From the NCBI GenBank assembly GCA_964013405.1, contig CAXGWI010000031.1, positions 1 to 28,316 on the forward strand: a DNA stretch of 28,316 nt, read 5' to 3'. A model generated the notes under the pieces. The model was not told where the DNA came from. It did not search any database and saw only the letters and a program-made list of their open reading frames with translations. This DNA is from an uncultured Myxococcales bacterium (GTDB lineage: Bacteria; Myxococcota; UBA4151). Below, in pieces: positions 9,568 through 28,316 of the stretch; positions within the stretch are counted from its first letter, which is position 1, and each line of letters begins with the position of its first letter. The position numbers and the translations under genes were made by a program.

Positions 9568-11004
9568 CTAGTCGCAGAGCGTTTCTTGCTCTTGGTCCAC
9601 ACCGAGTTCGATCAGCACCTCGCCCTTCGCACTGGTCCGCCCACTGGAACACACGGCCCGCAACTCATACTGGCCCGGGTTCAAATCCACGGCTTCGCCG
9701 CTGACCGCCTGCTTCTTGCTGCCATCCTTCTTGGAGGTCACCAACCACGTCCCTCCACTGCGCTCCCCGGCCTTCAGCATCGTCAAACGAAACCGGCTTT
9801 GACGCCGGCGCAGGTTCACCACGAACTGGCCATTCTCCCGAACTTTCAACAGATCTCGGCTGGGAATGATTGCGCCATCGCTTGCCACCACCCTGAGCGG
9901 CCACGAACCCGGTGCCACCCGGACCGCCTGACCCACAGGAAAGCGAGATACAACCTCACCATTCTTGGGGCTCAACAACTCCACCATCCCGTAAATGGGA
10001 GCTTCTCCCCGCGTCAGCCGCGCGATAACGGTGCCAAATTTTGGTCGCTTGCCAACCTTTGAGGTGACTCCAGGCCTAAGTGAAATCTCCTCGGCCTGCT
10101 CACCACTGACCAGACCGGCGATGTCACCACTGGAGAGCCGGTAAACAACTCGGTAGTCGCCGGGGGCCATACGCCACCGGTCGCCCGCTGGGTTATCGAG
10201 CACCACGTCGCCGCTGGGTCGGCGCTCGACACGCAGATCGGCATAGGGCTCATCGAGCCCCCACCGGAGGGTCGCCAAGCGCGGACGAATCCGCTGACTT
10301 GCCCGGCCCTTTGGCTTCAGCAGGACCTCCCCTGCTGGCCAACGGTGGTTTACCAAATCATCATCTAAACTCGCTTCGAGTCGATAGCGACCCGGTGGCA
10401 GCTCAAGCCATTGGCCTGCGGGGGCATAGCCCCGACTCTTGTTTTCCACATCAAAAGCTTCAAACTGTCCTTTTTGACCGCCGAGGTCGACACGGACCTT
10501 GCCCACATCCATAGCGATCGTCAGCTCGCGGGTCTCCTCTCCCTTCACGGTCACGAAGGTGTCAAAGAAACCTCGATTTTTCGGATCGACAATCCGCAGC
10601 CCCCAGCGACCTGCGAGGAGGGGAACCTGGGCCCCAGGGGTGGCGGTAGCGGTCTCCCCCGTGGGCAACTCAAAGTCGAGGCGGGACCTGAACTTGCTGC
10701 CTTCTCGCTTCGTCCAGACAATCAAATACCCCACGCTGAGATTAAGCTTCGTCGAGCCCTTCACACCGCGGACAATCTTGACGACCTCGCCGGTGGAGCG
10801 GCGACACGTGACCTTCAAATCCAAGGGCAGGTCGTCAGCCCACGGCAAGCGCTCCCGAGCCGATTTACCGACACCACTGTCCAAGCGAATGATGGAACAG
10901 ATTCGATCCGATTGACCGCCGTTGACAAAGACATCGACCTTGAAACTCGCGGGTTCCGGCGCAGGGGCAGCGAGCAGAAAAAGAAGGCTCGCATTGAGGA
11001 GCAT
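9568..11004 (-). CDS. Secreted basic protein with about 5 PEGA/prealbumin-like beta-sandwich repeats
   Basis: Signal-like MLLNASLLFLLAA. Repeated G-x-x-(V/L)-x-L-x-PG-x-(Y/W)-x-L motif (GAQVPLLAGRWGL, GQWLELPPGRYRL, GDRWRMAPGDYRV, GQAVRVAPGSWPL, GEAVDLNPGQYEL). ATG directly abuts the upstream stop. Confidence 0.75.
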   Translation of the reverse strand: MLLNASLLFLLAAPAPEPASFKVDVFVNGGQSDRICSIIRLDSGVGKSARERLPWADDLPLDLKVTCRRSTGEVVKIVRGVKGSTKLNLSVGYLIVWTKREGSKFRSRLDFELPTGETATATPGAQVPLLAGRWGLRIVDPKNRGFFDTFVTVKGEETRELTIAMDVGKVRVDLGGQKGQFEAFDVENKSRGYAPAGQWLELPPGRYRLEASLDDDLVNHRWPAGEVLLKPKGRASQRIRPRLATLRWGLDEPYADLRVERRPSGDVVLDNPAGDRWRMAPGDYRVVYRLSSGDIAGLVSGEQAEEISLRPGVTSKVGKRPKFGTVIARLTRGEAPIYGMVELLSPKNGEVVSRFPVGQAVRVAPGSWPLRVVASDGAIIPSRDLLKVRENGQFVVNLRRRQSRFRLTMLKAGERSGGTWLVTSKKDGSKKQAVSGEAVDLNPGQYELRAVCSSGRTSAKGEVLIELGVDQEQETLCD

Positions 11005-13254
11005 CTACAAACGCTCCGCGCTTAGGATGTAGCGGGCCCGAGGATGGGTATCGATGGAGTAGACCCGCAGATAGTACGTTCCCGTCACTGGAAAGCGATG
11101 AATGATCTCCTCCTGGGATCCCACATCCTCCGAGCTGGTAATCAGCGTCGTTCGGTCCGTACTGCGTAAACCTAGATCCAAATCACCATCAACGGCATGG
11201 AACTGGAGTAGAATGCGAACTCGGTCACCCTGGTTCACATCGAGACGAAACCAGTCATCGTCGCCATCACAGGCCCCGCCGACAAAGTTCTGGTCAAAGG
11301 GTAGTGGTGCGGCCGTCTCGGGGTTGTTGTTGGGCTCGGCCGGATCAGGGCGACAATGGAAGGCTGGGTCAACCTGGAAATCCAGCCGGTACAAGCCTAG
11401 ACCGTCATCGGCACTATGGACCCGAGCCAGTACCTGGGTCTGTTCGTCGGCCTGGTAGACGGCCTCGTGCAGACCACCGAGCCCCCAATGGGCACCAATG
11501 GCCGTGGTTCCAGTTCGGTCGTAGAAGCGAACATCGACGTTCAACTCACTGGCTTCAAAATGGGTCGTTGCGTACAAGCGCTGCCCGGCCGCAAGTCCAA
11601 TCCGATACCAGTCCACATCCCCAGCACACAGGGAAAGCCCCTGACGGGCCCCCTGATCAGGATTGATCACGGCAGCCTCTTCAGGGCTGTCGTTCGCCTC
11701 GTCGGCATCGGGCTCGCAGAGGAAAGGTCCGTGAATCACGAGATCGTGGTTATAGGTCATGCTCTGACGGTCGGCGGTTCGGACCTCGATCAAGAGGTCT
11801 TCGGGCCCCGCTGCTCGGTGGTAGAGTCGCTCTTCGTCCGTCCCGATGTTTCGACTCACCATCAACACTTGGTCATCGCTGTTGATCAGGCGCAAATCGA
11901 GGTCACCCTGCTGGGCGTTAAAGCGGGCCGTGTACTCGAGCGCTTCGCCCGCTGCGAGAGACACGGCATAATAATCCACGTCAAACTGACAGAGGCTTAA
12001 CCCCCCCTGCTGCCCGGCCTGCAGTGACCGGGGCTCTTCTCGGTCGTTGTTCGGCTCCAGGCCGTCGTCCTCGCAGGGTTGGCCGGGCCCGACACGCAGT
12101 TCCATCGCGTAAGGTGTGTTGCCCTGAAGATGAGCCACCTTGATGTAATAGAAGGCATCGCTCCCAGCGACGAAGTCAAAGCCAGCCGAGCCTCGAGGCG
12201 GCCCCGGTACATAACGCAGCGTGGAGATCCCATCGGGGGCCACCAGATAGACATCGATGCGGGCCCCATCCCGAAGATCGGTCAGTTGGGCTTCAAGCCG
12301 GTCACCTCGATTGAGAAAGACCGCGTAAAAGTCATCGTCGTCCGGGCACAGCGTCAGATGATCCATGCGTAGCTGATCGGTCTCGAAAATCAGCGGCGTC
12401 GCCGAGGCAAAACTATCGTTTTCTTCATGAATATCGTCCCGACACGGGCCCTCGATGGGCTCGCAGAGACCAGTAATGACGTCACAACGTTCCGCAAAGG
12501 AACAGTGCAGGTCGCTCGTACACGGATCAGGGCGAGGCAGACACATCCGAGTGATCAGGTCACAATATTGGTTTTCCGGGTCATCACAATCCTCATCCCG
12601 ACGACAAATGTTCTCGCTCTCACAAAATCCGCTGCGGTGATTGCACCTCAGCCCAGGGCCGCAATTCTCATCACTGACACACTGAACACAGGAGCCTTCA
12701 TAACAGAACTCCCCTGGGGCACAGTCTTGGACCTGCGTTTCCTCGGTGCATTCGGCTGCACCATCCCGCTGGCAGCGACCGGAAACGGGGTGACAATTCT
12801 CGCCGGGCTCACAGGCGGTTTCGGGAAAGAGTTCCGCCAGGTCGCAGCCGACACTGGGAATACAATAGAAATGCACCTGGTCGCAGTCCTGTCCGACGGG
12901 ACAGTCAGCCCGACGGGCACAGGGCAGACCTTCGCTCGCGTCCCGGCATAGACCCAGCGCACAGAAGCGAGAGAGACCGCACTCCGCGTCCTCTTCACAC
13001 TCGTTACCGAAGCCGTCCCGAGTCCGACAGACTTGCTCATGGCGAGAGCAGTATTCATACCGGGCGCATTCACTGTCTTCACTGCAAGGTGGAATCGCTT
13101 CGCATTGGCCATTTTCCGAACAGCGCTCCCCCTCAGCGCAGTCCGCCGCCTCGCTGCAGGGCAGCGCGATCGGTCCCGCATCCGGGGGCGGGGGAGGAGG
13201 CGCCGAAGGGCAGGCGATGAGGACCAGCAGAAGCGCGCTAGAAAGGCCGCGCAT
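11005..13254 (-). CDS. Lipoprotein B2: Cys-rich repeats plus 4 PPC (pre-peptidase C-terminal)-like domains
   Basis: Lipobox VLIAC, poly-Pro/DAGP linker, C-x2-D-x2-C-x5-C-x4-6-C repeats, then four modules C..D..E.N(D/N)...LC..D.D.(Y/W)...GDLDL...YYL.V (11008-12444). Confidence 0.82.
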   Translation of the reverse strand: MRGLSSALLLVLIACPSAPPPPPPDAGPIALPCSEAADCAEGERCSENGQCEAIPPCSEDSECARYEYCSRHEQVCRTRDGFGNECEEDAECGLSRFCALGLCRDASEGLPCARRADCPVGQDCDQVHFYCIPSVGCDLAELFPETACEPGENCHPVSGRCQRDGAAECTEETQVQDCAPGEFCYEGSCVQCVSDENCGPGLRCNHRSGFCESENICRRDEDCDDPENQYCDLITRMCLPRPDPCTSDLHCSFAERCDVITGLCEPIEGPCRDDIHEENDSFASATPLIFETDQLRMDHLTLCPDDDDFYAVFLNRGDRLEAQLTDLRDGARIDVYLVAPDGISTLRYVPGPPRGSAGFDFVAGSDAFYYIKVAHLQGNTPYAMELRVGPGQPCEDDGLEPNNDREEPRSLQAGQQGGLSLCQFDVDYYAVSLAAGEALEYTARFNAQQGDLDLRLINSDDQVLMVSRNIGTDEERLYHRAAGPEDLLIEVRTADRQSMTYNHDLVIHGPFLCEPDADEANDSPEEAAVINPDQGARQGLSLCAGDVDWYRIGLAAGQRLYATTHFEASELNVDVRFYDRTGTTAIGAHWGLGGLHEAVYQADEQTQVLARVHSADDGLGLYRLDFQVDPAFHCRPDPAEPNNNPETAAPLPFDQNFVGGACDGDDDWFRLDVNQGDRVRILLQFHAVDGDLDLGLRSTDRTTLITSSEDVGSQEEIIHRFPVTGTYYLRVYSIDTHPRARYILSAERL

Positions 13255-14773
13255 AGGGCATGCTCTCCTCTAGGGTGCGGAAGTTGAGATCAGGCCAGTC
13301 CATCTGGAGTGCTTTCCACATGGTTTGATCTTCCTCGAAGTCCCAAATTGTCTCGAGTTGCAAGAGACCCATCACATAGATCCGTAAGACCGCCTCCACC
13401 GGTGCCCGTCGTTCACGGGCATCCTCTAGGTTGGCGGCCCAATAATGAACCCAAATCTGATAGGTGTCCTCTGCGGGCTCGCGAATGTTGATGTTTTCGG
13501 GCCCAAAGCCCATCTGATCGTCGATATCGAGGCGGGGGTGATTTTCCTGAATCTGATACCAATCGTCGGGAAAGCGGTTCGAGAAATACGCATCCCAGCG
13601 GGGGTCGAAGGCCGTGAAATCGTCTTGTTCCGGTTCGGGGTCGGGGTTCAGCCTGATCAGGTGCAGATCGAGGTCTGCGGTGGGATGATCCCAGGTGAGT
13701 TGAATATGAAGCGCATCGGCAGGGACCGCTCGGAAACTCACGATGGCCGGGTCCACAGACCGAACCCCCATGGTGTCGACGACGTGGAGTTCAACGGTGT
13801 AATCGCCGGCGAGGTCTGCGATGATGCCGCACTCGCTTTGGTCGGCGTCCCTTAGGGTCGCCGTCGAGCCATCAGGCCGTCGGATCAGGCTCCAATGATA
13901 GGTCTCGATCCCCACCCCTTCCACGGAACTATGGGACGTGCGTCCATCGATCACGACTTGGTCGAGGGGCTCGATGTTCTCTGGGTCATTGACGAGCACA
14001 GCCTCGGGTACGGGGGGCTGATGCCCGCTCCCTTCGATGGGGACCTCCACAACGCTCCGATTGGGATCGTTGCTGGTGATTTTGACCAGCCCGGAAAACG
14101 GGCCCAACTCCGGTGGCAGAAAAGCGATTCTTAGTTGGGCAGTGAGGGTTGGGGCGATGGCCTGATCCACGAGGCTGCCCGCCAAGATGCCTGTGAAAGG
14201 GCACTCGCCGAGCAAGTCAGGGCAGATCACCTCCACGTTGCGGACATAGAGGTCATGAACACCTACATTTTGAATCTCGAGATTGGCAAAGCCCCGATCG
14301 TTGATCGCCGTCGGGCCAAAATCCAAGGCCTCCGGCGTGACTCGGATCTCGGGTAGGCCCTCGTCTACCCCTTCAGCCAACAATGGGATGGAAACCGTCC
14401 CGATATCCTCGTCGAGGGTGGTGAGAAGAACGGTTCCTAGCAGTTCCCCTTCGACGACAGGCTCAACACTGACGGAGAAAATGGCACTGGTCGCCGGCGC
14501 GAGAAAGGAAGGACAAGTCCCTAAGGAGAAGGCCGGCTCCGTATCCTCGGAGAGGGCACAACTGGTGATCTCAATCGGCACCATGGTGGGATTACCTAGG
14601 GTCACCTCCTTGGTCACCCGTTGGGCAATGGGAACCGCCTGAAAATTCACCGGGTTGGGCTCCACCATGAGCTCCCGCTTTACCCGGACAATTTCTTCCT
14701 CTTCACAATTAGCTGCGGCCAAGGGCAGCAACAACAGGAGCAGGGAACTGCGGCCAATCCTCGACATGATCAC
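13238..14773 (-). CDS. Lipoprotein A2: two choice-of-anchor-D/ASH Ig-like domains, a PKD-like domain and a C-terminal YfaP/DUF2135-like domain
   Basis: Lipobox AAANC. VEPNPVNF..V / VTPEALDFG..IQNVG..SNDP Ig motifs; IDGRTS..YHWSLI.RPDGS...DLAGDYTVEL; LTWDHPTADLDLHL...DIDDQMGFGPENINI...YQIWVHYW. Start GTG 14773 or ATG 14767. Confidence 0.8.
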   Translation of the reverse strand: MIMSRIGRSSLLLLLLPLAAANCEEEEIVRVKRELMVEPNPVNFQAVPIAQRVTKEVTLGNPTMVPIEITSCALSEDTEPAFSLGTCPSFLAPATSAIFSVSVEPVVEGELLGTVLLTTLDEDIGTVSIPLLAEGVDEGLPEIRVTPEALDFGPTAINDRGFANLEIQNVGVHDLYVRNVEVICPDLLGECPFTGILAGSLVDQAIAPTLTAQLRIAFLPPELGPFSGLVKITSNDPNRSVVEVPIEGSGHQPPVPEAVLVNDPENIEPLDQVVIDGRTSHSSVEGVGIETYHWSLIRRPDGSTATLRDADQSECGIIADLAGDYTVELHVVDTMGVRSVDPAIVSFRAVPADALHIQLTWDHPTADLDLHLIRLNPDPEPEQDDFTAFDPRWDAYFSNRFPDDWYQIQENHPRLDIDDQMGFGPENINIREPAEDTYQIWVHYWAANLEDARERRAPVEAVLRIYVMGLLQLETIWDFEEDQTMWKALQMDWPDLNFRTLEESMPYARPF

Positions 14774-17700
14774 CGAACCGTCACCTCGAAGCGATAGGCG
14801 GCCCGTCGGGCCGCGGGCCCACGCACTTTGAGGGCGTAGAAACTCAAGACCTGATCGGCGGTGAAGCGAAGTTCGTGAATCGACAGCGGCGGATCATCCC
14901 GGGTCTCATCGATAATTCTCCCGCTGGCGACTTCACCGCTGCTGTTGCCTTCATCATCGAGGCCATGAAGGGAGAGATCGATCTCGGCATCGCCGACGAC
15001 TCGGACTGTCAGTTCGTCGCCAGCAGCGAGGAGCAACTGGTACCAGTCGGAATCAAAGCAAAGCACAAGGTCTTCGGTCAGATCGTAGTTGCCCACCTCA
15101 TCACGGATCAACTGGGCTTCTGCCAGGGAATTCCCCCCGGCCGCCTCCCGGTCATCATCCTCACAGGAGAGGCTATAGGCCGCGGTCAGTTGATAGCTCT
15201 GAATGTCTTGGCCATCCCAACGATCCACCATGAGATAGTGGGCCCCACCAGCGGTCGAGGCCACATGGATCTCCTCGCTGTCTGTGTCGACACCGACGCT
15301 CGCCGCCACTGGCTCCTCATCGGCATCAAAGAGATAGAGGTCGATATCACCTTCGCCACCAGCGAAGGCCGCGGTCAACCGGACCTCGGTCTCTGCCTCC
15401 GGCTGGATGAGGTACCAATCCACATCGGTTTCACCACAGAAATGCCGCTCGATCGCCTCAACCCCTGGTGGCAAGAACGTCGCCTGGACTCGCTCATTAT
15501 TGGGTTCGCCCTCAGCTTGGGGATCCGGACAGAGCTCAGAACTCTCAACGCCCAGATTCAAGACAAAGGGTGCACCCTCAGCTCGCTCCTCCTCAGTGGC
15601 TTGGTTATTCCACCCAACCCAGATGTAATAATAGGCCTGGCCCCCGGCTGCGTTGATCGCTCGGGCCTCTCGGTGCCCAACCGGCCCCGCACCATAGTGC
15701 AGCGGCGTGGCTCCATCCACATCGAGAACACGCAAATCCAAGGGAAAGCGCGGGCTATTCGAAAGCCGGGCAGTCAAGCGCTCCCCGGGATTTAGCATCA
15801 CCTTGAAGAGGTCCACGTCTTCCGGCGTGCAGAGGGCCGAGTCATCAACCAATGCGACGCCATTTTCATCCATCGCCACAGCCCGAGAGCCGTCGGGATC
15901 TCCCGGCACATCCTCTTCGTCACCACAACGAAAAGGCGGCGCAACACGTAACCTCATCACATAGGGGTGCGTCCCCTCCCGTGCTTGAACATCGGCGCTC
16001 CAGTTCACCTTCACATAAACGTTGCGCGGACCGTCCTCTTCGTTGGTCCATTCCACGGATTCAACGCCCGTTGGGCCCTCGCCCCGGGCCAAAGCCTCTC
16101 GTCCGGTCGCGGACAAGAGGACCAAATCCATGTTGGGCGGATCGCCCTCTTCCGCTTCCGTGACGATACTCGCTTCGATCGTATGGCCCTGGGGCACACG
16201 GACAGCGTAGGTATCGATATCGTCATCGCAGAGGAATCGGCGGATCTCCAGGGGGCGGTCGTTGAGAGAAAGCCCTGTCGCGTCCTGTCGACTGTTGTTC
16301 GGCTCATCGATTTCGCAGGGCGGTGGCGTACTTTGGTTGACCTGCAGGCGATAAGCATAGCTATCTTGAGCATCCGCGTTGGATTTCACCCGCACTGAAT
16401 AAGTTCCCGCCACAAGGGCCGTGGCGGAAGTGGACCCGGTCCAAGATCCCTCAGCGAGACGGGTGGTGCCGAGGATCTCAAATCCGACGCTCTCCGGGGA
16501 ATAGATATCCACCTGGAAGCGCCCCTCCGGCCGCACGGCAAACTGACAGATAGACTCGATGCAAACCGTTCCGACCGGATGGTTGGGATGGTTGCAGTCC
16601 TCATTGCGGAAGCACTGAGTCGTGGGCTGGGCAACCTCGGTATAAGCCACCTCGGGAAGAGACAGTGTCACCTCTAGGTTCTGGCCGCTTTCCGCATGGA
16701 TTCTGTAGAAGTCTTGGTCACCACGGCAGAGGACCTGCTCCAAGGTATCGAAGAGCGGCCCCTCTCCAAACTCAGTCATGGGCACACCGGCCGAGCTGTT
16801 GTTGTTGGGCTCGTGGGCATCGGCGGGACAATTCGGTTCGGGCAAACGGCAGCGATAACTCGTTTGGTCGCAGGACCAGCGCGGGTCACCACCATGCTCC
16901 TCCTGGCAGTTCTCGTCGGAGGAACACAGGGGGATCACACATTCATTGTTAGCCAGAGCGCAGACACGCCCCGTCGGCGAGAGACACTGAAGTTGAGGGG
17001 CATCCGGCGTGCCCACATCAAGGCAATAGGTCTCCGCCGGACAATCGAGATCTGTGCTGCAACTCTGCTCCGTGGAACGCATGCAGTCCACATCCCGGAG
17101 ACAGCCGCCGCCGCCGATGCACCGACCGGTCACCACGTTACAATGGGTGCCCTGATGGCGCCGGCAGGTCGAGGTGCCCTCTGAGTCCGTCACGCAACGC
17201 TCACCCTGGGGGCAGGCCCCGCCACCGCTGCAATCGAGAGCACTTCCCTCGCCCGTACACTGGGTGTCATCGAGACACTGGACACAGCGACCGTCGACGT
17301 CGTCATCGCAAAGTTCGAACTCGCGACAGTCCTGATCCTGCGTGGCGCGGGTGCATTCCCCGGCCTCGATCTCCCGACAGGAGTTGCTCTCCACATCGCA
17401 ACTCTTACCATCGGGACAAGCCAGCTCAGCAAAGAGATTGGCGTAGCGACAACCTAGATCTTCCACACATGTATTCGCCGAAGGGTGGCAGCGCTGACCC
17501 GGCGCACAGTCACCGTCCCGGGCGCAGGTTGGGCGCATGCAACTGTACGCGACACAACGCAATTGGTCCGCATCACAAACCGCCCCGAAAGGAAGGCAGG
17601 CCCGATCGTCGACACAGTCGACCTCAAGGGCATTCGCAACGCATTGAATCACCTGAACGGCATCACCAATTCGACTGGGATCCCTGGCACAGTTGCTGTG

Positions 17701-18111
17701 GTCCGGCTCACCATTTTCCTGGGGGCCACAGTCATTGGCTCCCGCATTCAGACAGTTACCACCCCAGCAGAAAGACAGCGCGGGACAGTCGCCATCCGTA
17801 CGGCATTCGCAACCAATACCATCGCCAAGATCGCAGGGCGCAACGCAGATGTTTCGCTCGCTATCGCAGGCGAGTTCATCGTCGCACTCATCATCGTAGC
17901 CACAGTCTCCCAGCTTGCAGATCCCGCTCTCCCGGTCACACCAACTCCCCGAGCCGCAAAGAATGGCACCCTCTTCTTGGCCAGCGGCGCTGTTTTCTGG
18001 AACGCAGCGGTTCTCAAGATCAGGCCCTGCGTCAAAGCTGCCGACGTTCGTCGTCTGGGGACAAGCCGCAAGAAGCCCAAGGATAGGTACGAAAAGACGA
18101 AGATTTCTCAT
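14770..18111 (-). CDS. Lipoprotein B1: extended Cys-rich repeats plus 5 PPC-like domains (paralog of B2)
   Basis: Start re-called at ATG 18111 (GAGGA SD; MRNLRLFVPILGLLAAC lipobox). Cys repeats are collinear with B2. Five PPC-like modules with EPNN-type motifs (14773-16830). Confidence 0.82.
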   Translation of the reverse strand: MRNLRLFVPILGLLAACPQTTNVGSFDAGPDLENRCVPENSAAGQEEGAILCGSGSWCDRESGICKLGDCGYDDECDDELACDSERNICVAPCDLGDGIGCECRTDGDCPALSFCWGGNCLNAGANDCGPQENGEPDHSNCARDPSRIGDAVQVIQCVANALEVDCVDDRACLPFGAVCDADQLRCVAYSCMRPTCARDGDCAPGQRCHPSANTCVEDLGCRYANLFAELACPDGKSCDVESNSCREIEAGECTRATQDQDCREFELCDDDVDGRCVQCLDDTQCTGEGSALDCSGGGACPQGERCVTDSEGTSTCRRHQGTHCNVVTGRCIGGGGCLRDVDCMRSTEQSCSTDLDCPAETYCLDVGTPDAPQLQCLSPTGRVCALANNECVIPLCSSDENCQEEHGGDPRWSCDQTSYRCRLPEPNCPADAHEPNNNSSAGVPMTEFGEGPLFDTLEQVLCRGDQDFYRIHAESGQNLEVTLSLPEVAYTEVAQPTTQCFRNEDCNHPNHPVGTVCIESICQFAVRPEGRFQVDIYSPESVGFEILGTTRLAEGSWTGSTSATALVAGTYSVRVKSNADAQDSYAYRLQVNQSTPPPCEIDEPNNSRQDATGLSLNDRPLEIRRFLCDDDIDTYAVRVPQGHTIEASIVTEAEEGDPPNMDLVLLSATGREALARGEGPTGVESVEWTNEEDGPRNVYVKVNWSADVQAREGTHPYVMRLRVAPPFRCGDEEDVPGDPDGSRAVAMDENGVALVDDSALCTPEDVDLFKVMLNPGERLTARLSNSPRFPLDLRVLDVDGATPLHYGAGPVGHREARAINAAGGQAYYYIWVGWNNQATEEERAEGAPFVLNLGVESSELCPDPQAEGEPNNERVQATFLPPGVEAIERHFCGETDVDWYLIQPEAETEVRLTAAFAGGEGDIDLYLFDADEEPVAASVGVDTDSEEIHVASTAGGAHYLMVDRWDGQDIQSYQLTAAYSLSCEDDDREAAGGNSLAEAQLIRDEVGNYDLTEDLVLCFDSDWYQLLLAAGDELTVRVVGDAEIDLSLHGLDDEGNSSGEVASGRIIDETRDDPPLSIHELRFTADQVLSFYALKVRGPAARRAAYRFEVTVR

Positions 18112-18122
18112 GGATTCGTTCC

Positions 18123-20018
18123 TCAGCCACCCGTCGGGGGGATGGGGTCGACAGGCCGGTTGGTTGGCTGGCAAATCAACCGGCTGCCACGACAGACACT
18201 TTGAGAGCAGGTGCCCTCTGTGCACAGATAATCAGCCGGACATTCGATGTCGGACTCGCAGATCAATGCGGTGGCATCCGTGACACAGGACTGACCACGG
18301 CGACAGTCATCATCACTGGCGCAGGTACCACCCTTTTCAGTGGTGATGATGACGGATTCCCACCAGGCACCGGTATCCTCCAGCACCGCCTCCACCTCGC
18401 AGGACAGGAGTCCATAGAGGTGGACTCGTACTGTCGCGATGGTCTCACGAACGCCGCCCGTTGTCGGTGTGGCCCGGTAGTAGTTCACTCCAGCGACATA
18501 GTCGCCCAGTCTGGGCTCATCGATGCTGATGTTTTCTGGGCCATAACCATTCACATCATCGATATCGAGACTCGCGCCCCAATCGAGGCCCGGATCACGG
18601 CAGTTGCGGTAGTAGCAATCCAAGCCATTGTCTCGATAGACCGCCGAGTCTCCAGTACGCAGAAGGTGAATATCCACATCACTGGTGGGGTGATCCCAAA
18701 TCAACTGGATGGCGAGGGCATCCTGCGGAATCGCCTCAAACTCAACAAAACAGGGCTGAGAGCGAACATCGAAAGTGTCTTTGACGATTAACTGGACCGT
18801 GTAGGGTCCGGCCAAATCCAAGCCTGGCTGCTCCCGGCCGGAACTTTCGAAGACGAAGGCTGGGCGATCACCATTGGGGTCGGTCAGGACCGCAGTGGAG
18901 CCGTCGGGGGCACTGATGATGCTCCAGTGGTAGCTCGCAATTTCCGCGCCCTGAACCTCGGTGTAGCTCTCTTCGCCGGTGAGTTGGACATCAGACAAGG
19001 GCTCGATGTCCTCTTCCACATCGAACTCCAGATTGCCATTCACCGCGTAAATTCCGCACTCCGCAACGGGTGCCTGGTGACCCACACCCCGCAGTTCGAT
19101 GGCCGCACCATCGGGATAGCTGGGGTCGTTGGTTTGGAGCAGAAGAGCCCCTTCATAGGCGTGCAGACCCGGTGGTGCAAAGGTCACCACCAGATTGGCT
19201 GCGGCGCCGGCCTCGATAATCAATGAATCCGCCGTGACCGAACCGCCGATTGAAAAGACGGGAACAGGGTCACTTTCCGCATCGGGACGAGTGATGGGGT
19301 TGTCCGCCCCCATTTCGATCCCATCCAGCGTCAGGACCCGCTCACCAACGTTACGAATCTGGACGCGGCAGACGGAAGTGTCGCCAACGCCAACCGCGCC
19401 AAACTCACAGACGGCGTTGACCTCTGGCGTCGCCGGCGTCCCTGGAATGGGGATGATCTGCATATGCGGCACACCTCGGTCGACACCGGTGGCAACCAGC
19501 TTCACCTCCACGATCGTGCAATCGGCTGGATCGCCCAAGGGGCGCTCTTCCTCGGCCCCGCGAAAGAGGAAGTCAGGGTAACGACACTTGGTCTCACTGA
19601 GCGCGCCGTTGGTCGCATTCGAGAACAACAACAATGTGCCTTCGATCTGGGTTTCACCCACCGTCGGGCGGACTTTGACACGAACTTCTTTCGTGATGCC
19701 CGCTTCAAGAAGCATGGGGGTCGCTTCAACGGCAAAGGCCGGATCCGAATCCCCGCTCATCCGAAACTCAGCGATCTCGAGCGGTAGATTCACGGGGTTA
19801 CTGACCAGCACCGTCCGTTCGGTCCACGCGGCCAGAGGGGCCTCACCGAAGTCTAGCCGGCAGTCCCCCGCGTGCCCAGTGCACAAAGGCTGGACTTGTT
19901 CCTCTTCGGGAACGGCCAGTTTCACCTGGGCTTTGATCTCATAAACATAAACCTCTTCCTCGCAACCGATGGTGGCGAGAACAGGCAGCAGCATAATCCA
20001 AGGCAAGCGACGAACCAA
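18123..20018 (-). CDS. Lipoprotein A1: Ig-like domains, PKD-like domain, YfaP-like domain and a C-terminal Cys module (paralog of A2)
   Basis: Start re-called at TTG 20018 after GGAGGA (MVRRLPWIMLLPVLATIGC lipobox). LDFGE / EFGAVGVG..IRNVG..TNDP; IEPLSDVQLTG..YHWSII.APDGSTA..DLAGPYTVQL; IQLIWDHPTSDVDIHL..DIDDVNGYGPENISI. Confidence 0.8.
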   Translation of the reverse strand: MVRRLPWIMLLPVLATIGCEEEVYVYEIKAQVKLAVPEEEQVQPLCTGHAGDCRLDFGEAPLAAWTERTVLVSNPVNLPLEIAEFRMSGDSDPAFAVEATPMLLEAGITKEVRVKVRPTVGETQIEGTLLLFSNATNGALSETKCRYPDFLFRGAEEERPLGDPADCTIVEVKLVATGVDRGVPHMQIIPIPGTPATPEVNAVCEFGAVGVGDTSVCRVQIRNVGERVLTLDGIEMGADNPITRPDAESDPVPVFSIGGSVTADSLIIEAGAAANLVVTFAPPGLHAYEGALLLQTNDPSYPDGAAIELRGVGHQAPVAECGIYAVNGNLEFDVEEDIEPLSDVQLTGEESYTEVQGAEIASYHWSIISAPDGSTAVLTDPNGDRPAFVFESSGREQPGLDLAGPYTVQLIVKDTFDVRSQPCFVEFEAIPQDALAIQLIWDHPTSDVDIHLLRTGDSAVYRDNGLDCYYRNCRDPGLDWGASLDIDDVNGYGPENISIDEPRLGDYVAGVNYYRATPTTGGVRETIATVRVHLYGLLSCEVEAVLEDTGAWWESVIITTEKGGTCASDDDCRRGQSCVTDATALICESDIECPADYLCTEGTCSQSVCRGSRLICQPTNRPVDPIPPTGG

Positions 20019-20088
20019 CGGGTCCTCCACATTCAAGATGTCAACAACGCAGACACGCTAGCAGAAATCCCCCATGCTGACACGGTTC

Positions 20089-25209: not shown

Positions 25210-25503
25210 TCAGCAGCCCTCGGACTCGCTGCACGGCGCTTCGGCCAAACCACAAGCAGCCCAATCCCCGCGGGCCAGAGCATCACAGTCGCAGGTCTCC
25301 AAGCGCTCAAGACAAAGTCCTTGAGCCCCCTCGCTCGCGGCGCCCAAATCCATCCGAGCCTGCATTTGACTGACGCAGAGGTTCACTTCCGAGCGGCTGT
25401 CACGGCAACTACAAACCCGGGTCCCCAGGTCCTCACACGGATCGCCACAGCCGGTGATCACCACGCAAACCACAAGGAAATAAGGAGCGAACCGATGCAG
25501 CAA
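25210..25503 (-). CDS. Small Cys-rich lipoprotein
   Basis: Lipobox VITGC, 10 further Cys including two C-x6/7-CxC-x9/10-C units. Stop is 2 nt before the pssA ATG. Confidence 0.72.
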
Positions 25504-25622: not shown

Positions 25623-25901
25623 ATGAAGATCGACGCTGCACTACTTCCCGGTGGCTACGAGTGGATCGTCATTCTCGTCGTGGTGCTGATCTTCTTCGGG
25701 CCCAAAAAGCTTCCCGAGTTGGCCCGGGGACTTGGCAAGGGGCTCCGCGAGTTTCGCCAGGCCTCCGATGAAATGGTTGACACCATAAAGAACGCGGACC
25801 TCGAAGAACCACGGGAGCTTCCATCGGCCAGTGAGAGCCTGCCGGTCACCCCAAGCACGGAGGCGGCGGAAGCGGCACAGGACCGCAGCGACTCCACTTG
25901 A
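25623..25901 (+). CDS. tatA: Twin-arginine translocase TatA/TatB family subunit
   Basis: [45 protein letters not shown]. Confidence 0.93.
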
Positions 25902-26683
25902 GCCAGGACCCGAATCAACTCACGTTCCTCGAGCACTTAGATGAGTTGAGAACTCGACTCATCCGAGCGATCGCCTGCGTCTTGATCACGGGCATTGCAG
26001 CCTTCGTCTTCAAGGAGGAGTTGTTTGAAATCTACAAGAAGCCGCTCCTCCCGCTCCTTGAAAAAGACCCCGATCTCCTTGTGGTTCTGAGCCCGATCGA
26101 GCCCTTTTTGGTCTACATTAAGATCAGCGTGGTGACGGGCATTTTCATCGGCCTGCCGTTCTTACTCCGAGAGCTCTGGGCCTTTCTGGTGCCCGCATTG
26201 TCACGGGATGAGAAGCGGGCAAGCCTGCCATTTTTACTGGCGGGGACCACTTGCTTCATGGCCGGTGTCCTCTTTTGTTACTTCTTGGTCCTCCCCGCAG
26301 CGCTCACGGTCTTGCATGACCTGCTGCCGCCCACCGTGAACGCCTCCTATTCGATGGCGCTCTTCTTCAATTTTATCACGGCCATGCTGCTCGCCTTCGG
26401 CTTGGCTTTTGATCTGCCCGTGCTGATGGTCTTGTTGGCGAAACTTGGGATTCTGCACCCGGCCTGGTTGGCCCGCTACCGCCGCTATGTGGTGGTAGGA
26501 CTCTTTATCCTCGCTGCCATGGTCACCCCCCCTGATCCCTTTACCCAAGTGGCCATGGCGCTGCCCCTGTGGCTGCTCTTCGAGATCGGTCTGGTGGTCA
26601 GTCGCCTGGTAATCGCCGCCAGCCCGGTCCCGGAGGCAGAGTCCGAAACTCCAGAAGCTGGAGCGAGCCCCGAGTCGGGCTGA
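25898..26683 (+). CDS. tatC: Twin-arginine translocase subunit TatC
   Basis: [52 protein letters not shown] overlap with tatA. Confidence 0.96.
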
Positions 26684-27215
26684 CCTGAAAACGAACCACG
26701 GCGTGGTCGTCCACCGGATCTCTTCCCTGATCGTAGCCACGACGCCCAATGACCAGGGTGCATTGGTAACGCCAACAAAAACCAGTCCAGCGAGCCAAGT
26801 GCCGAACATCATGGCGCCATTTAAGTGGGACCGGCTCGGTGCCATCGACCTGGGAAGCCTCCGGTCGCAGCGCCGCAAAATCATCGAGAAAGATCGTCAT
26901 GGGCCGACCGATGGGGACAAGCCGTTCAAGTAGGCCCGCCACGGCCTCATAGCTACGGGGTGACAAGACGAGAAAACTCGCTTCCCCGTCCAACAAGCGG
27001 TCGAGACAAAAGCTTAAGGGATCAAGCCACAACACCGAGCAGCCCCGACGGTGAAGGTGTTCGGCCCAGCGCCACAGCCGTTGTTGACGCCGTTCAGGGT
27101 CAGGCCCTGACACGCTGACCAGGCGCCCCCGCGGCAGGATTTGAGCGCCCAATCGGGCCATCGCAGGTTCGGGGATCTCGTCGCCCTGTGGTCGAGCCCT
27201 TGTCCAATCGAGCAT
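26598..27215 (-). CDS. Degenerate RecA-fold protein (Walker A lost; ImuA-like)
   Basis: ATG 27215 shares its first base with the comM TGA (TGATG). LPRGRLVSVSGP, G.SVLWLD, LVLSPRSYE, IFLDDFAALRPEA and CTLVI match the RecA core in order, but GPDPERRQQ replaces GPESSGKTT. Confidence 0.7.
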   Translation of the reverse strand: MLDWTRARPQGDEIPEPAMARLGAQILPRGRLVSVSGPDPERRQQRLWRWAEHLHRRGCSVLWLDPLSFCLDRLLDGEASFLVLSPRSYEAVAGLLERLVPIGRPMTIFLDDFAALRPEASQVDGTEPVPLKWRHDVRHLARWTGFCWRYQCTLVIGRRGYDQGRDPVDDHAVVRFQVSPTRGSLQLLEFRTLPPGPGWRRLPGD

Positions 27216-28316
27216 CAAGCCGCACTGGCCAGGGACTGCAGTGGATTCGCCGGCCGAAAGGTCATCGCCTCCACAAGATGGTCGAGGTGCAGGTGTGCTT
27301 TGGCCTCCAAGTCGGCGATGGTCCGACTCACCCGAAGCAGACGGCACAAGCCCCGTGGCGACAACAAATGTCCATCCAGTGCCCGACATAGAAAGTCATT
27401 AATTCGCTGATCACCATGGGCAAGAGCGAGACTTTCTCGGGCGCCCAAATCGCCATTGGCACAGCCCTGCCGATCCAGCGCTAATTGCCGGGCATCCTCC
27501 ACCCGCGACCGCATCGCCACGCTGGTCTCAGCGGCGGAGTCATCAGCCCCGAGGACTTGGCCAGAACTCGGGGCATCCAACATCATCTGCAGGTCGATGC
27601 GGTCCATGAGCGGGCCACTCATCCGTTCCTGATAGCGGGCCACCGAGGGCGGTGAACAACGACAGCCCCGTTGCTCACTGCCCCAATAGCCGCAGGGACA
27701 AGGATTGGTCGCCGCGACCAAGATAAACCGAGCCGGTAACTCCATAACGCCCTCCGCCCGCACCAAACTCAGCCGGCCCTCCTCAAGGGCCTGGCGCAGA
27801 CTCTCGATGGCATTGCGGCGAAATTCGCCCACTTCATCAAGGAACAAGACGCCGCCATGAGCGCACGTCGCCTCGCCGGGCCTCAGGGGTCGTCCGCCAC
27901 CGACAAGCCCAGCACTGGTGACACTGTGGTGGGGGCTCCTAAAGGGGCGCTGGCTCGCGATGTTGGCGGTCATCCCAGTCACGCTGGCAACCCGTAGAAC
28001 CTCGAGGCGTTCCTCTGGCCCCATCGATGGCATGATCCCTGGGAGCCGGCGGGCCAACATGGTTTTTCCGCAACCGGGCGGGCCGCTAAGCAACAGGTGA
28101 TGGGCGCCACTGGCCGCGATCATCGCCGCCCTTTTTGCCCGCTGTTGCCCTCGAATTTCGCTAAAGCAGTAGCTTGTTGGCCCACAGGTCGGAGCAGCGA
28201 CGGAACCAAGGCTTTGGGGCTCCCCCTTTCCCTCCAACCAAAGAAAGACCTGCCGCAGGGCCTTAAATCCGAGGACCTCAATGCCATCGACCAGGCTGGC
28301 TTCATGGGCATTTTCA
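27215..28316 (-). CDS. comM: ComM/YifB Mg-chelatase-like AAA+ ATPase, 5' part outside the window
   Basis: IRGQQRAKRA, GPPGCGKTMLARRLPGIMP, RPFRSPHHS, GEATCAHGGVLFLDE, AATNPCPCG, SGPLMDRIDL, LSPRG..LRVSRTIADL. The frame stays open upstream of 28237 to the window edge (ENAHEASLVDGIEV). Confidence 0.95.
   Translation of the reverse strand, partial: ENAHEASLVDGIEVLGFKALRQVFLWLEGKGEPQSLGSVAAPTCGPTSYCFSEIRGQQRAKRAAMIAASGAHHLLLSGPPGCGKTMLARRLPGIMPSMGPEERLEVLRVASVTGMTANIASQRPFRSPHHSVTSAGLVGGGRPLRPGEATCAHGGVLFLDEVGEFRRNAIESLRQALEEGRLSLVRAEGVMELPARFILVAATNPCPCGYWGSEQRGCRCSPPSVARYQERMSGPLMDRIDLQMMLDAPSSGQVLGADDSAAETSVAMRSRVEDARQLALDRQGCANGDLGARESLALAHGDQRINDFLCRALDGHLLSPRGLCRLLRVSRTIADLEAKAHLHLDHLVEAMTFRPANPLQSLASAA

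Follow-up and report, generated by a model that had tools for sequence, protein, structure and literature searches.

A degenerate RecA paralogue encoded directly downstream of comM in a family of uncultured Myxococcota

Two recA genes, each with its own promoter, have been reported in myxobacteria (PMC7029660), and the consulted portion of that report describes RecA1 (MXAN_1441) as a protein of about 340 amino acids (aa) with strand exchange and LexA cleavage, and does not mention comM with the duplicate recA. The stretch of DNA analyzed here, henceforth the window, comprises positions 1 to 28,316 (28,316 nt) of contig CAXGWI010000031.1 in assembly GCA_964013405.1 from an uncultured Myxococcales bacterium (GTDB lineage Bacteria; Myxococcota; UBA4151), a genome that we refer to as G000. 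In it, an open reading frame (ORF) at 26598..27215 on the minus strand occupies the same slot as RecA1, 3' of the comM gene, and has its best profile scores against RecA1-type proteins. In contrast to RecA1, its product, P0001, is a RecA-core protein of 205 aa (205 codons) that lacks the N-terminal arm, the GKT of the P-loop, the catalytic Glu, the INQ sensor, most of the L2 loop, and the C-terminal domain. The ORF is a real, undescribed degenerate RecA paralogue, and a literature search, with subscription journals mostly outside it, returned no description of a comM-linked degenerate RecA or of a link between comM and recA1.

Eukaryotes and archaea regulate their recombinase by degenerate paralogues, and ImuA is the closest described bacterial case. 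ImuA and ImuA' proteins (ImuA1-3) are reported to share with P0001 a RecA core without terminal domains, ImuA1 and ImuA2 also being without Walker motifs (PMC12926913), and a filament-inhibiting role has been reported for M. xanthus ImuA (10.1101/2020.12.14.422803); the ORF, in contrast, lies outside an imuB-dnaE2 cassette, is nearer to RecA in sequence, and is tied to comM and a sigma-54-type box instead of a LexA-like box. The Rad51/RadA paralogues (RAD51C/XRCC3 complexes, Shu proteins, archaeal RadB) are, like the ORF, recombinase duplicates minus filament or ATPase features, whereas the ORF has an origin of its own, from bacterial RecA, and is found in one family among 401 genomes; the likeness is by analogy only. 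Rad51 paralogues have a role at filament ends. The genes of the ComM-DprA-YraN module (PMC12012524, PMC13663708), together with comEC and radA, are all present here, whereas the consulted portions of those sources describe no RecA-fold accessory protein and comM lies away from dprA and yraN, which are on contig C41. The family described here would add a second bacterial route to such a paralogue, in which an intermediate survives: the complete RecA1 would have given rise to a form of 160 aa with intact Walker motifs, and this to one of 205 aa without them. The link of comM to recA1 across the phylum, with a sigma-54-type box in front, offers a possible reason for the retention of two recA genes in myxobacteria. 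So far, the degenerate form has been seen in six genomes, all uncultured.

The 3' 366 codons of the comM/yifB helicase gene occupy 27215..28316 on the minus strand and match Pfam Mg_chelatase (E 1.6e-80) and Mg_chelatase_C as well as TIGR00368 (YifB family); the contig ends within the gene, whose first ~143 codons lie outside the window on contig C12, in the same frame. As stated in the original prediction, which was made from the sequence of the window, the comM stop overlaps the start of the ORF, the A of the TGA (27217-27215) opening the ATG (TGATG, 27213..27217, minus strand), and the next gene is not imuB-dnaE2 but a convergent tatC (25898..26683, plus strand, Pfam TatC E 2.4e-66). This tatC overlaps the ORF tail to tail by 86 nt (26598..26683), and we place it outside the proposed system. 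The order comM-ORF is found on one contig in genome G001, and a stop/start overlap, varying in letters and length, also occurs in G001, L015, G002, G003, and G005; in the sister genus described below, the gene 3' of the short recA-core ORF differs from tatC. Because such overlaps are frequent among co-oriented genes of the window, we infer translational coupling from comM to the ORF with caution.

Neither Pfam nor NCBIfam assigned a family to P0001 (no Pfam match, SulA included, at E<=0.1). Of the 20 matches at E<=10 in a PDB sequence search with P0001, all are RecA (best single-chain E 0.078), and with a 6-sequence profile the best RecA E value improved to 0.003. Every motif pair that the original prediction had quoted as tracking the RecA core aligns to RecA, and the ESM Atlas model of the protein matches RecA with a template modelling score of 0.70-0.72, in agreement with a RecA-type alpha/beta ATPase core fold. 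An AlphaFold2 (AF2) model (predicted local distance difference test score, pLDDT, 78.8) came from a 26-row alignment that included five RecA rows and is hence partly circular; with this partly circular model, the top 50 Foldseek matches are all RecA, and VIA gave Z 17.2 and a root-mean-square deviation of 3.4 with 188 aligned against RecA. The best structural matches of the ORF model also include RAD51-paralogue complexes (Z 15-17) and RadB (Z 14.5), and the Atlas feature search was topped by RadB-like clusters. An earlier AF2 model from six sequences (pLDDT 42) was uninformative, with a best fold-search Z of 5.0. RadA/Sms proteins consist of a Zn finger, a RecA domain, and a Lon-like domain and are about 450 aa long; the ORF was rejected as a RadA/Sms homolog, as P0001 has 205 aa and none of the extra domains, and a separate radA is present in 5/5 genomes.

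Residue roles were assigned from E. coli RecA using alignments of two types, the long form without a P-loop found in this genus (this type, n=9 aligned) and the short form of the sister genus (sister-genus type, n=12 aligned, taken from 23 sister-type proteins). The alignment to RecA begins at about RecA residue 33-46, shows gaps in the L2 columns, and ends near RecA residue 245. The P-loop is degenerate (residues 37-44, 27084..27107, minus strand), reading GPDPERRQ where RecA has GPESSGKT; among the nine sequences of this type the first Gly is kept in 9/9, whereas Lys is replaced by Arg in 9/9 and Thr by Gln or Leu in 9/9. At the position of the catalytic Glu stands Leu67 (27015..27017, minus strand), which is Leu in 9/9 of this type and Asp in 12/12 of the sister-genus type, and all nine sequences of this type have lost the Gln sensor along with most of L2; thus the Walker A GKT, catalytic Glu, and Gln sensor of RecA recombinases are all substituted, and the N-terminal arm, L2 loop, and C-terminal domain are missing from the ORF protein. 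Two elements persist. The acid of the Walker B strand (residues 108-111, 26883..26894, minus strand) is retained as Asp in 6/9 or Glu in 3/9 (Asp in 12/12 of the sister-genus type), and a strand-Pro-helix segment (residues 81-99, 26919..26975, minus strand) corresponds by alignment and model to the core polymerisation surface of RecA, which takes the N-terminal arm of the neighbouring subunit (10.1101/2020.12.14.422803). Across both types Pro86 is invariant (21/21) and Phe81 nearly so (20/21), and the predicted structure has a strand at 82-84 and a helix at 89-99. The losses listed in the original prediction (GKT, catalytic Glu, INQ, most of L2, and the terminal domains) thus extend across the orthologues, and from them the ORF protein is predicted not to hydrolyse ATP. 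We word this with caution because, according to a preprint (10.64898/2026.08.14.744951), M. smegmatis ImuA shows helicase activity that depends on ATP, though actinobacterial ImuA2 is described as being without Walker motifs (PMC12926913); ATP hydrolysis has also been reported for M. xanthus ImuA (PMC11002988), which falls in the ImuA group with Walker motifs (PMC12926913).

The pairing of comM with a RecA-core gene recurs throughout the family. Its six genomes contain a short RecA-fold gene and no full RecA1, and the short gene lies directly 3' of comM in 5/5 genomes with an assembled junction; in G004, comM and the short gene are at the ends of separate contigs. In G002, G003, and G005, which represent the sister genus, comM overlaps a RecA-core gene of 159-166 aa. 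Proteins of this sister-genus type end before the trans-acting lysines and differ among themselves down to a pairwise identity of 34-49%, and 12/12 still share the GKT, the Walker B Asp, and an Asp in place of the catalytic Glu. The description of the gene as catalytically dead therefore stands for motif loss in this genus, where the motifs predict it, but does not extend to the sister genus, whose orthologues keep Walker A and B. Both types join in the tree (96/89), on long branches. A combined profile run across 401 genomes of the phylum (7 candidates scored per genome; the apparently frameshifted P0046 excluded from profiles) reached E<=1e-43 in the six family genomes only, the next-best matches outside the family being long RecA-like frames at E>=1e-18, and pattern scans of genome and metagenome contigs each gave one locus, the two being near-identical. 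P0048 and P0049, two of the four matches in a search of representatives, were dropped as repeat artefacts. In the sister genus, the short RecA gene is followed by a small same-strand ORF (L045 18905-19303 region, L052:742-1050, L085:1221-1601), by eye of a ribbon-helix-helix type, and then by a ribonucleotide reductase-like gene pair.

The ORF is a real gene under purifying selection. It has five orthologues at 58-75% identity and one at 41%, all 205-209 aa long. In the comparison with L015, differences amount to 0.63 at third positions versus 0.25 at second positions, and in that with G001, dN is 0.34 and dS 2.3 (saturated) with an omega (dN/dS) of 0.14, in agreement with the expectation that dN/dS would be below 1; L015 and G001 are near-identical and count as a single comparison, and omega is that of one LWL85 pair because at saturated dS NG86 and YN00 gave no usable value. 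Within the tatC overlap, a block of nine residues is identical in the frame of the ORF while the tail of tatC diverges, and for the last ~10 residues of the ORF, where both frames are conserved, the constraint may come from tatC.

In this phylum the slot itself usually holds a full second recA of the RecA1 type. We searched 55 genomes outside the family for RecA, 39 of which have a listed comM position, and in 22 of these 39 a recA lies within 6 kb 3' of comM on the same strand (13 adjacent; 1 of the 22 cut by a contig end). Among genomes with two recA genes, 21/28 have a comM-linked copy, and a recA lies in the 1.5-kb flank at 20 of the top 26 comM loci by score from outside the family, a non-random set, with one split and one cut. 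In the largest family, the beginning of the linked copies resembles the M. xanthus recA1 primer and that of the unlinked copies the recA2 primer. In the present family, the sole full RecA groups with RecA2 (31 rows, SH-aLRT 98); one full RecA was found in 5/6 genomes and none in G003, and a second full recA in none of the six. The ORF thus shows the arrangement of the RecA1 lineage, 3' of comM with RecA2 elsewhere, and a quick tree attaches this type to a RecA1 subclade (98), on long branches, although the tests given below do not reject RecA2. As full recA1 genes begin 11-94 nt after comM (14 loci), the overlap seen here is probably the derived result of a 5' deletion. The ORF was not newly recruited: in most relatives its place is taken by a complete second recA of the RecA1 type; of the earlier proposal of an undescribed pseudo-ATPase partner of ComM, the undescribed RecA-core gene is upheld, whereas the newly recruited partner gives way to an inherited slot. 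Other families show independent erosion of additional recA copies, in G040, G045, G050, G029, and G054, all scoring RecA1 over RecA2 over ImuA (L143:1544-2323 in G040, L156, L172, L086, and L155; the G040 copy is one gene after comM and has a Walker A GKS). At L077 (G096), the comM-linked recA is split into overlapping ORFs of 246 and 124 aa by a frameshift or an assembly error.

The regulatory region of comM was searched with the sigma-54 -24/-12 consensus. A perfect TGGCAC-N5-TTGC is located 43 nt before comM at C12:44697-44711, outside the window. With at most one mismatch, such a box is present in 25/44 comM upstream windows (duplicate loci of one genome removed; 6/44 from this family, with 0, 1, 2, 2, 1, and 3 mismatches) versus 0/44 coding controls, and in 5/1956 other upstream windows of this genome; the box recurs before comM across the phylum (loci L057-L082, L143-L161). 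With rpoN present in 5/5 genomes and the box standing before the first gene, the operon is predicted from sequence to have a sigma-54-dependent promoter. A LexA-like pattern, derived from two sites (recA and imuA of this genome), is common to the upstream regions of these two genes, and no LexA-like box was found on C12 ahead of the comM operon, unlike the full recA, which has one. A further good LexA-like box precedes a gene at G000:C9:43751.

The original prediction also proposed, as a check, to confirm an intact recA and any imuABC genes elsewhere in the genome, and we find both: G000 has an intact recA on contig C1, a radA, and a complete imuA-imuB-dnaE2 cassette on contig C20. A scan of the genome for a second RecA N-terminal-arm motif found RecA itself alone. 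Among the family genomes, the uptake genes dprA (5/5), comEC (5/5), yraN (4/5), and a comEA-like gene (5/6) are present. DprA here ends in a winged-helix-like tail (weak DprA_WH match, E 0.007, below cut-off), and the idea that the ORF replaces a missing ComM-binding tail of DprA was rejected, as DprA keeps a similar tail. In the sister genus (L045, L048, L049; G002-G004), a second lexA heads imuA-imuB-dnaE2, and ImuB, at 425-462 aa, is shorter and gave no match to the IMS domain in G002-G004; this genus has one lexA and none within its cassette.

We lean tentatively, and at somewhat less than an even chance, toward the ORF being an eroded RecA1. Its product would be made together with ComM and would act on filaments of the remaining RecA, capping or restraining them. 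A 5' deletion would have taken away the N-terminal arm and brought the start codon to the stop of comM; the ancestor of the family would have lost L2 and the C-terminal domain, and the P-loop would have gone later, in this genus. Keeping the surface that accepts the RecA arm but without an arm, L2, or the trans-acting lysines, the protein could join the end of a filament and allow no extension, and such capping may limit strand invasion, or pass the D-loop to ComM-YraN, upon activation of the comM operon. A comparable role was proposed and partly shown for M. xanthus ImuA, which, with the core polymerisation motif only, was reported to lower RecA1 filaments in vitro (10.1101/2020.12.14.422803, preprint). 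A wider proposal, which we consider somewhat unlikely, is that natural transformation in Myxococcota is run by a sigma-54 operon of comM and recA1 that brings its own recombinase, and that in this marine family RecA1 became stepwise a bacterial "Rad51-paralogue," passing through a nucleotide-binding mini-RecA to a cap without a P-loop, which terminates RecA2 filaments and delivers the D-loop to ComM. Several observations weigh against a conserved RecA-capping RecA1 descendant. This type and the sister-genus type are only 14-21% identical, a divergence that sits poorly with a single conserved surface for RecA binding, and the shared Pro and Phe may perhaps be structural. The ORF protein (omega 0.14) evolves faster than ComM (0.07), ImuA (0.065), and RecA (0.02). 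In approximately unbiased tests an origin from RecA2 is not rejected (p 0.57-0.68), and the branches in the tree are very long; therefore, RecA1 ancestry rests on synteny together with presence and absence. Adjacency to comM, being inherited, is weak evidence of physical partnership and fails to demonstrate joint function. Finally, the comEA-like gene, comEC, dprA, and yraN of this genome gave no upstream sigma-54 box (the best sites having 2-4 mismatches; 1/7 helix-hairpin-helix loci read in the wrong frame), and a competence regulon is therefore unsupported here.

The three outcomes that the original prediction had named as speaking against it, namely no RecA-fold match, a lone decaying recA without purifying selection, and an ordinary ImuA in its cassette, were not what we found, although variants of the latter two deserve weighing. 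The ORF could be what remains of a recA1 in slow decay, weakly selected for fold stability or operon position and without a specific partner. The stepwise loss of motifs between the two genera is consistent with this, as are a dN that is the highest among the genes compared and, in one run, 3 non-synonymous and 5 synonymous changes among 8 listed variants of the ORF versus 2/10 non-synonymous in comM (low-depth contigs), and the independent erosion of recA copies in other lineages fits general decay; but the frame has stayed open at 205-209 aa across saturated dS and is kept where the tail of tatC varies, new invariant residues (Arg, Leu, and Trp-rich motifs) are fixed in this type, and GKT and both acids persist throughout the divergent sister-genus sequences, so we regard a vestige as unlikely. 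That the ORF is an ordinary ImuA displaced from its cassette is highly improbable. Its gross architecture is that reported for ImuA1 and ImuA2, without Walker motifs (PMC12926913), and in the reverse direction the short proteins obtain similar scores from an ImuA profile and a RecA1 profile (5-24 bits); for this reason the separation rests on the forward profile test, hhalign, and the tree. In the forward direction, against 36 RecA1-type, 31 RecA2-type, and 17 ImuA proteins, the profile of this type gives mean bits of 19.7, 17.2, and 0.5, respectively, so that sequence affinity is to RecA far above ImuA; hhalign gives 96% for RecA1 versus 66% for ImuA; and ImuA forms its own clade (98/94). Moreover, G000, G001, G002, G003, and G004 each have their own imuA ahead of imuB-dnaE2, and the ORF, followed by tatC, was ruled out as the displaced imuA of the cassette on C20, which has its own.

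Two further readings give the protein a different target. As a direct cofactor or loader of ComM, it would bridge the end of a RecA filament to the ComM hexamer, and the stop/start overlap in 5/5 assembled junctions, where full recA1 genes leave a gap, and the common sigma-54-type box speak for it. Such overlaps are, however, common in the window, the pair RecA-ComM is reported as negative in a two-hybrid assay (PMC13663708), and ComM is reported to be recruited by the C-terminal winged helix of DprA (PMC12012524), to which the DprA here has a similar, weakly matching tail; because this known recruiter appears present, loading is the weakest of the three roles that the original prediction proposed for the protein (filament capping, ComM loading, or restraint of recombination), and we think it decidedly unlikely. 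Alternatively, the RecA fold may have been neofunctionalised as a scaffold whose target is not part of recombination, such as a SulA-like checkpoint of cell division that is expressed together with the comM operon; this seems quite improbable to us. The strong divergence from RecA and the new conserved surface residues would suit it, and a size of 160-209 aa with loss of the arm, L2, and C-terminal domain recalls the stripped RecA cores of SulA type, but the Pfam search that included SulA gave no match and the top structural matches are RecA and Rad51 paralogues; no SulA occurs among the 50 structural matches listed, a direct SulA profile comparison not having been made.

Elsewhere in the window, an ORF for a 97-aa Cys-rich lipoprotein-like protein (25210-25503) is divergent from tatA, is 75% identical in L015, and had no match in a Pfam search. 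Five large, tightly packed minus-strand genes at 9568-20036 encode Ig-like (HYDIN/ASH/Cep192-type), PKD, PPC, and Cys-rich domains and are probably genes for secreted or surface proteins.

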